Source of the DNA: Cetorhinus maximus
Taxonomy: Eukaryota
Assembly (NCBI RefSeq): GCF_964194155.1
Contig: NC_135907.1
Span: 15,872,001-15,936,000, forward strand
DNA: 64,000 bases
Direction: 5' to 3'
Shown here: one piece after another, positions 1-40,798 of the stretch
Numbering within the stretch: position 1 is the stretch's first letter
Layout: each line of letters starts with the position of its first letter
Notes under the pieces: generated by a model
What the model saw: only the letters and a program-made list of their open reading frames with translations
Told to the model about the DNA's origin: nothing
The model's database searches: none
Made by a program: the position numbers and the translations under genes

Positions 1-1448
1 GATGATGTCACTCTCAACCATTTCTCCCAGTTCCTCAAACATCATTCCGAGGAGAAGCAGGAACATGCAGAGAAGCTGATGAAATTCCAGAACCAGCGTG
101 GAGGCCACATCATCCTCCAGGATGTGAAGGTTGGAATTGGGGAGGGAAATGGCTGCTTAAATGATGTCACGTTGACAGAATGTTCAAATCCTGAAGGGAG
201 AGTGAAATGGTTATTTTAGTTTCTGATCTCTCACGATGTATATGGCTAAGTCTATACACAGAATAGACCAATGTTTGAATCTTCCTGTGTGAGGACTGAG
301 ATGTAGCAGAGATGTACCCTGATCTACAAGGAGTTTTGACTTCTTTGTGTACATTAGTCCCATAGCTCTGAATAAAACAGGGAAAGTGTTGATCTGTTCC
401 TGAACTCATTCCTTAATGAATGTAAAAATGGGTATGATGAAAGTGCTCTGCAATAACTGACTTGTCTTTCTCCATTTTAGAAACCAGAGAGGGATGAGTA
501 GGGCAACAGTCTACAGGCAATGCAAATTGCCCTGGATCTGGAGAAGATTGTGAACCAGAGTCTACTGGATCTACACCAACTCGCCACCACTTGGACTGAC
601 CCTCATGTAAGTTTCACTTCATCCTAATTCTGATCACAGGTGGACTTTATACTGTTTTGTTGCCTTTGAAGTGATCAACCAAGAGACCAATTGGAAACCC
701 AACACATCATTGTCCTGAATCACCGTGTTCTAGTGTAGCCAAGGGCATCCAAGTGAGCCACATTACAAACTGCAAAAATCTGGATAAAATTAACTTGACT
801 TTAGCAGTAACTCTAGAATGTTCCAAGTTGAAGACCAACTCCAGGACTTGAATTTTTTTAAAAGCTGACAGTCTTGTGCAGGACCTTCCGATCAGATGTT
901 AACTTGCACTCTGTTTAAAGTGGATACGAAGGGTCCTGAGGCTCTATTGAAGAGCAGGGGTGTTGTCCCTGTCCTGGATGATATCCAATCCTTGATCAAC
1001 ATCTCTCAAACTGTGTCTCTGTTTTCACATTCTGTGGGAGCTTGCTGTGCACATTGGCTGCTGTGTTTACTATATCACAACAGTGAATGCACTTGATTGT
1101 CCCAAAGCACCTTCCACTGCCACAGTAAATTCTAGTCTTATTTGTATAGTATTTTGAAGTTTTTAATCCAAAGATGTTTGGGTGTGTGGCATAATGCAGT
1201 AAAAGACCAATTGTTTCCTGAGCCATCTGCTATAAACAGGAGTGAGGAGAATTGGCTGTAGAGGAACTGACATTTTGACTGTGTCGCAATGTTTCTTTCT
1301 CTTCCAGCTGTGTGGCTTCCTGGAGACTCACTATTTGGACGAGCAGGTCAAGGCCATCAAGCAACTTGGGGACTACATCACCAACCTGAAGCGTCTGGGA
1401 GCTCCTGAGAATGGGATGGGAGAGTACCTGTTTGACAAGCTGCACTAG
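1..1448 (+). pseudogene. Ferritin gene copy 1 (exon 1 outside window), pseudogene
   Basis: Exon 2 <1-129 ([43 protein letters not shown]), exon 3 481-606, exon 4 1308-1448, with GT-AG introns. Premature TAG at 499-501 where the paralogs have TGG. Near the C-terminus a net 1-nt deletion gives DKLH* instead of [15 protein letters not shown] at 1586-1591. Confidence 0.9.
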
Positions 1449-2659
1449 AGAGCAGTTAATGTGGCATCTGATTGTAGATTACTTTGCTTGTATGTGATGT
1501 TTCCAACTAGACCTGGACAATTTGGCTTTCTCCAGGAAGAAAGAACTTGTAGCATTGAATTAAATTGCTGTGTCACATGAACTGAAATAAAAATCTTTCA
1601 TTGACCTTGCCTATTGCTCATCATTCAGATCACTGATACCTGCATTAGTTTGACACCTTTAGCACCTCCAAAGCAGCTAGTCAGGAATCATTATTGTAAT
1701 TTGATAGTTAGTTAGTGATTAGACTGTTGTTCCTCCCCTGGACTTTATGTCAGATCATGGAAAGTGGTGAGCAAATGACCAGACTTCCACATGCCAGTAC
1801 CTTTTCTTGTCCCTTGTTATGATGGTTGGTTGGTGGCCTAGAGATTGTCATCCCCCAACCAGAATTCAGATGTGAGGTGCTGCAGACCTAATGTTGGAAA
1901 TTTGATGATATGTGGCAAATGTTGAACAAGAATTTCTGTTCCACATCAACACTAAGTGCTTGTTGTGTTTCAAGGCTACAATTAAAGCAAGTTCTTGACC
2001 TCCTTACCTAGCCTCTACTTTGAATGCCTTCACCTTTTATAGGTTTAGTTCACAAGAATATGTTTACAAGGAGACTTTGGGAAGATTATATCACCACCTC
2101 TTCCTCTTCTGAAAGCCATCCTCCATGCTTGGATTCCAGGCTTGTACAATTTTTAACTTTGTTCCTGTCAGTTGGCTGAGGGGCAGATACAAGTGTTTTC
2201 TTATGTGAAAGTTAACAGTAATTGTGTTTAAAACCAGAAATGGACATGTAAACAATCCTCTGGTGGTCCCAGGTCAAATCTGGGTGTTCCCTATTAGATC
2301 CTTTAAATATTCAAATGAGTTGCCCACTTCCATTCGATGGGAAATAGATATTTATCTCAATTCTCCCTGTGAATTCTCTTCTCCCCCCCACCCACCCCCC
2401 CTCCCCCACCCACTTTAGCAGGAATGCAGTGGTGAGCTGACCTGATGTGGTTCCCTGTTTTTCTCAGCCACTCCTGGGCTGGGGAACAATCCACACAAGA
2501 TTTCATAGCAGCAATGTTCCAGGAACTGATCTCAAAAACCCACACACTCCTTTTAATTAACGCTGACCTGAACTGCTTTGGATTATGCAGTTTACTTTAA
2601 ATGCCATCCACTGTTGGAGAAGAATGGTGGCCTGGAAGTAATACTGTAGTGTCACTGAG

Positions 2660-38538: not shown

Positions 38539-40798
38539 CGTGGCATCTAGTATCTGATTGTAGATTACTTTGCTTGTATGTGATGTTTCCAACTAGACCT
38601 GGACAATTTGGCTTTCTCCAGGAAGAAAGAACTTGTAGTATTGAATTGCTGTGCCACATGAATTGAAATAAAAATCTTTTGATTGACAATTGCTTTAATT
38701 TCTACCTTGGAGCTAATGGTAGCTTGAAGTACTGCCTGGCTTACCTAGACACAACATTGATAGACTGTGGGTCTTCCACTGGGCTCCCCTTCAGATCGGG
38801 AGGGTGGTGAACAATTGTCCATGTCTCCTTGATGGGCTCCTCCTGAGCTGACATCATCAACAAGAGTTCTCTTAGGTTGGGATGCAGTCCTACAATGGAA
38901 ATGTGAGGCAGGAATGTTGGGGTGTGACAAACCTTCATTGGACACCAATGTTCCATGTAGCCTTCAAAAACCAGAGGGAAATCAATTCAATTAAAGCAAG
39001 CTCCCCATTCCCACCACCTTTTCCTCCAGACAGCCTCAGTGCTAATGAGAATACATTTGAGTCTAAGCTCTCTATGATCATGCAATTGTCTTTTAAATGA
39101 GCAGAGATTTTTTTTTGGTGAAAGGAAGATTAAGATTCCATCTTTTCTAGTTTCCCCCAAAAAAACACATCCTAGATGCCATATCATCTACAACTTTTAA
39201 GTTGTTTTCTATCTGGGAATTAGTCAATCCAAATAGGCCCCCCATAGCCTGGAGTTTAGACAAACGTTTGCAGCAAAGGACATGATGTTATTTCCTGCTG
39301 AAGCAACAAAATGTGATTCTCAGATACCCAAAATGAGAATTCAGGAACACATCCAATTCTGTTCTCACCACTACTGCTGTCACTTTCAAATCAAAGTTTG
39401 TGGTCAGCCACACAATTGGCTAGAAGGCTCAGTGTAGGCCATTTAGCCCCTTGACTTTGTCAAGACTGAGATTGATAGATTTCTATGTATTAATAACATT
39501 GAGTGATATGGGGGATAATGCAGGAAAATAGTGTTGAAGTAGAAGATGAACCATGATCTCATTGAATGGCGGAGCAGACTTGAAGAGCTGAATGGCCTAC
39601 TCCTGCTCCTATTTATGTTCTTGTTCTGCCATTGAATTAATTCATAGCTGATCTGTATCTTATGCCCATCCTGGTTCCACAAGGCTTAATAGCCCTGCCT
39701 ACCAAGACACTACCCATTTTAACTTTGAAATGTCATTGGTGTCAGCCTCAGTTTTTTTGAGTTGGGTGTTGGAGCACAGGGAGCTCCAGATTTCCACTGT
39801 CCTATATGTGTAGAACTGTTTTCTGGACATCAACCCTGACTGTCCAAGCTCTAAGGTTCTGCCCCCTTGTTCAGGACTCATGGAAATAGGGCAAAACTAT
39901 CAAACCCTTTAATCATCTTAAACACCTCAATATAACATCACCCCTTAATCTTAACTTGAAGTACAATGTATTTGGGAGCAGGAGGAGTATGGAGTAGTAG
40001 TGGGGTAGTGGTCACAGAACTGACCATCCCCGGAGATCCCGATCTCTCCGATTACTCATCTATTGTCAATTTGAAGCTTGTTCGTAATTAGAAATGTGGA
40101 CCCAGTAAACGTTTTGTGCAGTTCTGTTGGGTCTGAAGACCCAGAGACACTAATCCAACCACTCACACTCAACAAAGTACAATATCTGATTACTCCAAGC
40201 TCCAGGGCACCTTCCCACGGGTAATTACTTTGCACTGGTAACCATCTGAAAATTGCAATGTAAATCGCAAACTTCAGATGGTTCCAACTATATTACATCA
40301 ACAGTTAGCCAGAAAAAGTTCGAAGAATTAAAATCACTTCCAGTTTCTGGATAATTATTGTACAGACCCACACCCACTCCCCCCAAAGGGATACCCCTCG
40401 AATCCCAAGCCCCCAGGAGACTCCTCCCACCCCCTAACTACTCCCCCCACCCCCGATAGGACTCCTCATCCACACGATTCCCCCCCTCCATGGGACCTCC
40501 TCCCTCCCCCTGGGACTCCCACAACCCCCTCCACTGTGGGACTCACCCACCCCACCTCCACCAAGGCCTGACCCAACCCAACCCAGCCACCCCACCCCTC
40601 AAATCCTACCCACTTACCTTAAGTGCACTTTCCTTGTCAAAGACCTTAAAACTTGGCTGGACCTTTAACCTTACCTGGTTTACAGCAGCTGGTGCTGTAA
40701 AAAAGGGGGCGTGGTTTACTTACCTTCGCCTCTACAGCCCTCGACGCTAGGCCCGGGGACGCGCTGCACTGCCCAGATCTCGCCTGGCCTGAGTCGGA

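Follow-up and report, generated by a model that had tools for sequence, protein, structure and literature searches.

The closest precedent for the genes described here is the mammalian germ-cell ferritin FTHL17, an H-type chain that the relevant sections of two papers describe as inactive through the substitution E62K, with its other ferroxidase ligands largely kept, expression in germ cells, and multiple copies in the mouse (PMC7760355, PMC13149808). We analyzed a stretch of 64,000 nucleotides of the basking shark (Cetorhinus maximus) genome, hereafter the window (contig NC_135907.1, positions 15,872,001 to 15,936,000; G000:C30:15872001-15936000 in our coordinates), which holds a cluster of ferritin genes with Lys at the same position. 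Unlike FTHL17 as described in those sections, the shark genes have four exons, group with a shark array of Glu62 ferritins, and keep E61, which is Asp in FTHL17. We estimate a probability of roughly 0.6 that they represent a shark-wide Lys62 subfamily without an iron-responsive element (IRE), which likely split from the Glu62 array and whose likely products are ferroxidase-inactive subunits that would join active chains in mixed cages of egg or germ cells.

Several other ferritins invite comparison. Tetrapod L chains (FTL and the amphibian and reptile “light chain, oocyte isoform”) likewise combine K62 with E107 and L173, and carpet-shark members of the subfamily also share their E141 and I144. 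Further L states are E141 (14 of 14 L rows), the loss of E27 and H65 (most L rows), and the E57/E60 patch (mammals). The intact basking shark copies, in contrast, keep E27, H65, and Q141, have H57, so that they lack E57, and match L only at E60; they have no IRE and lie apart from L in the best trees. The four-exon structure is shared with teleost and amphibian M chains, and a frog M chain is our top fold match, but M chains keep E62, and the portion of a salmon study concerned with them reports isoforms with iron-regulatory regions and an orthology of teleost M with mammalian L (PMC4117605). The sponge chain HdF2 combines E62K with IRE loss; according to the part of the report that describes it, HdF2 lost several ligands and a channel residue, whereas the shark chain changes only E62 (PMC8395497). 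In sharks, a preprint describes ancient FTL/FTH1-annotated ferritin clusters in the Greenland and white sharks, and its section on these clusters does not mention Lys62, subfamilies, or IREs (bioRxiv 10.1101/2024.09.09.611499); a second Greenland shark preprint had no ferritin passage. As far as the parts of these sources on the subject go, shark ferritin expansion with its ovary link (bioRxiv 10.1101/2024.09.09.611499), E62K in FTHL17, and E62K with IRE loss in a sponge (PMC8395497) are already in print. To this the present analysis adds the conserved shark Lys62 subfamily, together with five separate Lys62 origins on a tree in which Glu141 appears only on Lys62. No paper on the shark subfamily was found in the literature searched, which left most subscription journals outside its coverage; the subfamily is real and conserved, apparently undescribed, and a repeat of a known solution.

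A six-frame scan recovered five exon-2 copies in the window (four plus-strand, one minus-strand), all with the motif S-E-E-K-(Q/R)-E-(H/R), as a sequence-only reading of the window had stated. The Lys codon is AAG in each of them (positions 55-57, 6769-6771, 15562-15564, 22305-22307 on the minus strand, and 37391-37393). Copies 3, 4, and 5 alone are intact, with four exons, GT-AG introns, and frames of 176 codons, and are identical to the RefSeq proteins P0004, P0005, and P0002, respectively, labelled Cetorhinus maximus. These three keep E27, Y34, E61, H65, E107, and Q141 as well as the channel residues D131 and E134, also as first noted, so that of the complete ferroxidase set (E27, Y34, E61, E62, H65, E107, Q141) only position 62 is changed. 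An ungapped alignment to mouse H-chain sequences from the PDB placed the Lys on E62; a misnumbering of this residue, which the sequence-only reading had itself raised, was rejected on this alignment to solved H chains. Searching the whole genome with exon 2 gave 65 matches. Among the extracted intron-flanked copies, Lys62 was present in all seven full-length copies of the window cluster, every one AAG, and Glu62 in all 39 located elsewhere, a pattern that is not due to chance. Of these 39, 27 form the Glu62 array at C30:21.08-21.27 Mb.

Lys62 is not confined to the basking shark. Relatives carrying it were found in the white shark and in Mustelus, Scyliorhinus, Chiloscyllium, Hemiscyllium, Stegostoma, Rhincodon, Heterodontus, and Heptranchias, which with the basking shark represent five shark orders; the matches listed (best 120 of 1911) included no such relative from a ray or chimaera. 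We defined the clade by nine residues excluding position 62. This test was passed by 106 of 110 candidates, and the four dropped from the count were N-terminally truncated and also had K62. Within the clade, K62 is present in 106/106 proteins and E107 in 105/105 of those covered, compared with E61 in 99/106, H65 in 99/106, and E64 in 103/106; both D131 and E134 reach 100/102 covered proteins, and 46 of the 176 columns show no variation. At position 141, Glu occurs in 71 of 101 covered proteins; carpet-shark members have it (with I144), and Q141 is kept outside the carpet sharks. When all 488 stored proteins were scored, 108 passed the clade test, of which 107 carry Lys and the remaining one is a skink record that has an insertion. 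The sister array has E62 in 41 of 45 representatives. Since Lys62 is found in every one of the 106 proteins across five orders, it is a fixed trait of a shark-wide subfamily and not a local accident. Based on its heptranchid and galeomorph members and on the split quoted in a preprint (bioRxiv 10.1101/2024.09.09.611499), the clade would be roughly 250 million years old. The white-shark Lys62 ferritin also appears under P0006 and one accession of P0003, in records labelled Salmonella enterica. P0006, whose leader is translated, forms an unbroken frame of a 631-base contig; these records are probably mislabelled shark complementary DNA.

How would such a subunit work? The protein matches Pfam Ferritin (PF00210, E 2e-36), and its AlphaFold model shows a normal ferritin fold (pLDDT 87) of five helices, a four-helix bundle and a short fifth. 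A fold search gave template-modelling (TM) scores of 0.93-0.95 to solved M and H chains, with frog M first and 61-68% identity among the top matches. In L chains, a stabilising salt bridge joins K62 and E107, a pairing that fits the invariance of both residues in the shark clade. E62 is stated to belong to both iron sites, and the double mutant E62K/H65G to lose activity, in the passages on these mutants (PMC6929972); a review describes E62K as sufficient to abolish activity in FTHL17, with other ligands mostly kept, in its part on that chain (PMC7760355). Lys62 would then remove the ligand bridging the two irons and probably pair with Glu107, and the subunit would fold and admit iron through D131/E134 without oxidising it. 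By analogy with the reported FTHL17 E62K, the proposal in the sequence-only reading that these chains would be ferroxidase-dead or weak is well founded; its claim that they serve in nucleation is weakened by the scarcity of E60 (8/106) and the absence of E57 (0/106) in the clade.

No IRE was found in the window (Rfam, gathering score) or around copy 3 (E 10), and Rfam IRE_I was detected at the shark M and H genes; the Glu62 array, like the Lys62 clade, has none. With no IRE, translation would proceed regardless of iron level, and the Lys62 subunit would dilute the active sites of a mixed cage. Human H requires R23 to bind NCOA4, and four changes let L bind, according to the part of the study describing these mutants (PMC11076521). 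The four NCOA4-contact positions are N/Q, T, E, and K in copies 3-5, compared with R, Y, D, and N in human; lacking these human-H surface residues, the Lys62 chains may slow ferritin breakdown. As for where they are made, a truncated, degraded, intronless copy of the subfamily lies at G000:C32:3711767-3711951 (L081:1767-1951). It carries the last part of exon 3 fused directly to exon 4, continues into the 3' untranslated region, and is closest to copy 3 among five genes, which suggests past germline transcription. In the Greenland shark, the largest ferritin cluster is described as expressed specifically in the ovary, in the section of the preprint devoted to it (bioRxiv 10.1101/2024.09.09.611499).

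The same features could serve a role other than storage, as an inactive germ-cell ferritin that is partly nuclear and keeps Fe(II) available or regulates other proteins. Such an FTHL17-like function would account for the same key change in an H/M scaffold with other ligands kept, and for a clade without E57 and mostly without E60; FTHL17 itself is germ-cell expressed, multi-copy in the mouse, and partly nuclear, in the passages on it (PMC7760355, PMC13149808). Yet the retention of D131/E134 in nearly all covered proteins and the number of invariant columns are as expected of a cage subunit, and we regard this role as unlikely, though it is the best of the alternatives to a co-assembling storage chain.

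The origin of the clade was addressed with trees built after removing column 62. In a tree of 88 rows, from which 19 of 107 aligned rows were left out (near-copies, partial sequences, and long branches), the Lys62 clade came out monophyletic (100/99), with the Glu62 array and one chimaera gene as its sister group (95/84; 92/81 on 46 rows), on a poorly resolved backbone. The H clade (100/96) holds the C9 gene and not the window copies. Synonymous divergence (dS) was 0.70-0.92 to three array genes vs. 1.6-2.6 to the IRE-bearing M gene, a value that base composition could inflate, and was saturated to H. Over 400 bases of upstream sequence, copy 3 aligns to three of four array promoters (z 22, 17, and 5.7; the fourth 0.1), with CCAAT-type boxes and a TATA box in register, and does not align to those of five other ferritin genes (z -0.8 to 1.5). 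The sister position to the Glu62 array, the shared promoter, and the missing IRE favor convergence on an L-like state. That the clade is sister to the array, and so arose independently of tetrapod L, is supported by these comparisons, though not proven; dS and promoter are two independent lines in favor of the array.

On the 88-row tree, Lys62 requires five changes (in the shark clade, in one array gene of Heptranchias, in marsupials, in a lacertid lizard, and in tetrapod L) and Glu141 requires three, never occurring without Lys62; a paired test of K62 with E141 found two of five independent pairs going the same way and none the opposite (p 0.5), too few pairs for significance. Among the marsupial proteins, P0130 and P0291-P0300 are named FTHL17 or heavy chain A-like and carry K62. 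The two of them that we placed in the tree group with M-type ferritins of amniotes and apart from the shark clade, so that the marsupial name may not imply orthology with eutherian FTHL17, of which no named sequence was in our trees. The lacertid M-type ferritins (P0116, P0483-P0488) carry K62, E141, F137, and V144, another L-like convergence.

Alternatively, the clade could be what sharks have as their orthologue of tetrapod FTL, still at the first step (E62K) toward an L chain. K62 is present in all 14 tetrapod L rows, and approximately unbiased (AU) tests reject neither the clade with L (p 0.216) nor the clade with array and L (p 0.124). L173, E162, and G166 are common to the clade and amphibian and reptile L, although the array has them too. 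Human FTL lies between BAX and GYS1, and glycogen synthase, Bcl-2-family, and TIP49 genes, which we take to be FTL-neighbour families, are also on C30. However, the best trees join the clade to the Glu62 array, with which it shares its promoter and the lowest dS; it lacks an IRE, keeps E27, mostly H65, and, outside carpet sharks, Q141; and the cluster adjoins KMT5C and HSPBP1, about 9.5 Mb from the Bcl-2/GYS pair. No ferritin match was listed between 25.40 and 25.87 Mb of C30 (one search scored 150 of 275 candidates), and PPP1R15A, used as a synteny marker, had no match on C30; a suspected PPP1R15A frame of 556 residues was rejected, having no Pfam hit and sitting among KMT5C exons. Orthology with FTL is, in our assessment, slightly less probable again than the FTHL17-like role. 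Of the two origins offered in the sequence-only reading, an L-lineage intermediate or a convergent L-like chain, it is thus the convergent one that tree, dS, and promoter favor, with the L lineage unrejected by the AU test; its interpretation was partly borne out, and it noticed neither the lack of an IRE nor the Glu62 sister array nor the parallel with FTHL17.

The anatomy of the cluster bears on how the copies evolve. Copy 1 (1-1448, plus strand) is a pseudogene with a partial exon 2 (Lys62 at 55-57), exon 3 at 481-606, interrupted by an in-frame TAG at 499-501, and exon 4 from 1308, which stops early at 1446-1448; its exon 1 lies before the window, at G000:C30:15870774-15870875. Copy 2 (5237-8272, plus; exons 5237-5336, 6697-6843, 7207-7332, and 8117-8272; Lys62 at 6769-6771) is a probable pseudogene, with a 2-base loss directly after the ATG that puts it out of frame (529 vs. 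531 bases), H65R, and E140K; the RefSeq model P0014 restores a reading frame for it by giving it another N-terminus. Copy 3 (14134-16709, plus) has exons at 14134-14235, 15490-15636, 15821-15946, and 16554-16709, Lys62 at 15562-15564, and an AATAAA at 16843. Its promoter and leader (13834-14133, plus) contain the CCAAT-type boxes and a TATA box at 14020-14027. Copy 4 (21164-23744) is inverted, with minus-strand exons 23744-23643, 22379-22233, 22050-21925, and 21319-21164 and Lys62 at 22307-22305, and copy 5 (35990-38538, plus) has exons 35990-36091, 37319-37465, 37650-37775, and 38383-38538 and Lys62 at 37391-37393. Copies 3 and 4 lie in an inverted duplication (13382-24496) whose arms, 13382-18228 and 19661-24496, are 96% identical. 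The cluster extends upstream by another four copies (15.845-15.866 Mb), of which two have stops and frameshifts and two are without some exons in the search made. An assembly artefact was rejected: copies 3-5 differ by 4-6% over 4.4-4.9 kb, and the white shark has several matching genes. The Lys codon was also unchanged in the exon-2-covering contigs of two other runs, among the matches listed.

Copy number follows birth and death, not a fixed dosage, and the suggestion that the family was amplified for dosage is weak for the basking shark, where six of nine local copies are broken or partial. One might go further and see in the cluster a redundant array under relaxed selection, with Lys62 an old, tolerated knockout without its own role. 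The broken copies, the pairwise ratios of nonsynonymous to synonymous divergence (dN/dS) of 0.25-0.57 within the cluster (on few sites), and the 34 positions at which copies 3-5 depart from the clade majority are what this would predict. It is nonetheless improbable, since five orders still have intact copies, K62 and E107 are constant next to ligands that do vary, dN/dS against the array is about 0.2, and the white shark copies are 94-95% identical. That useful ferroxidase activity is kept through a rearranged site we consider very improbable: all other ligands are intact in copies 3-5 and the classic inactive human mutant is, in the part of its source concerned, the double E62K/H65G, but E62K alone is reported as sufficient (the wording of a review, in its part on FTHL17), E141 is present in addition in carpet-shark members, and H65 or E61 is missing from some proteins of the clade.

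Several observations weigh against our preferred reading, an IRE-free, probably inactive subfamily derived from the Glu62 array and acting in egg or germ cells. The 106 clade proteins are not independent, being largely carpet-shark near-copies drawn from clusters with a Lys62 representative. The AU test rejects neither the union with tetrapod L noted above nor that of all Lys62 groups (the clade, L, and koala; p 0.148). Only three of the nine local copies are intact. One of the NCOA4-contact positions is Ser even in shark H, so that the human rule may not apply in sharks. The exon-3 side of the C32 processed copy amounts to only about 13 bases, and none of 15 other fetched retrocopies came from the Lys62 subfamily (11 from the array, 4 from H). 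Finally, the ovary statement concerns the largest cluster of another species, whose subfamily is unspecified and which may or may not include Lys62 copies.

Around these genes, further features were observed. The center of the copy 3/copy 4 inverted pair is a C-rich tandem repeat (window 18800-19688), and copy 5 is flanked by a large inverted duplication (window 25946-33169 and 40799-47760, 96-99% identical) that has no ferritin exon. Copies 3-5 and the white shark have changes in common that are absent from the clade majority, including R43Q, A66V, N74S, R79Y, L82F, Q83K, and Y137F, and form a long, fully supported branch in the 88-row tree. Downstream of the cluster lie the KMT5C and HSPBP1 exons; upstream, cytohesin-like exons were recognized by eye only, and Pfam did not confirm the one exon tested. 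The left border of the Glu62 array shows, by eye, CHMP2A-like exons (G000:C30:21045079-21046177). Beyond the array are the IRE-bearing M-type gene and a divergent “lower”-type gene; the H gene is on C9. A divergent four-exon ferritin at G000:C30:21345846-21365401 has V61, Q107, G131, S140, and S141, keeps E62, has no Rfam IRE, and groups with a lungfish sequence (92/91), making it a second, separately disabled shark ferritin. Two more divergent single-copy ferritins lie between the array and the M gene (G000:C30:21283454-21292182 and 21299756-21310340), the former with K61, Q65, and K140.

A bolder version of the preferred reading, which we offer tentatively as a possibility suggested by the comparisons above, is that the subfamily is a light chain invented by sharks: an IRE-free, ferroxidase-dead, NCOA4-evading partner of an ovarian Glu62 array, and one of at least five vertebrate origins of E62K. 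With Q141E arising three times, only on Lys62, E62K followed by Q141E might be a repeatable route from active to L chains with living intermediates. Why catalytically dead ferritin chains arise again and again in vertebrates, and by what route, is not settled. Sharks provide a natural single-change version (Lys62 only, in lamniforms) and a two-change version (Lys62 and Glu141, in carpet sharks) on a near-identical scaffold, beside an active sister, so that the order and benefit of the L-chain changes become directly testable. The reported shark “FTL/FTH1” expansion splits into an active and a probably inactive subfamily, a division that bears on iron storage in large shark eggs.

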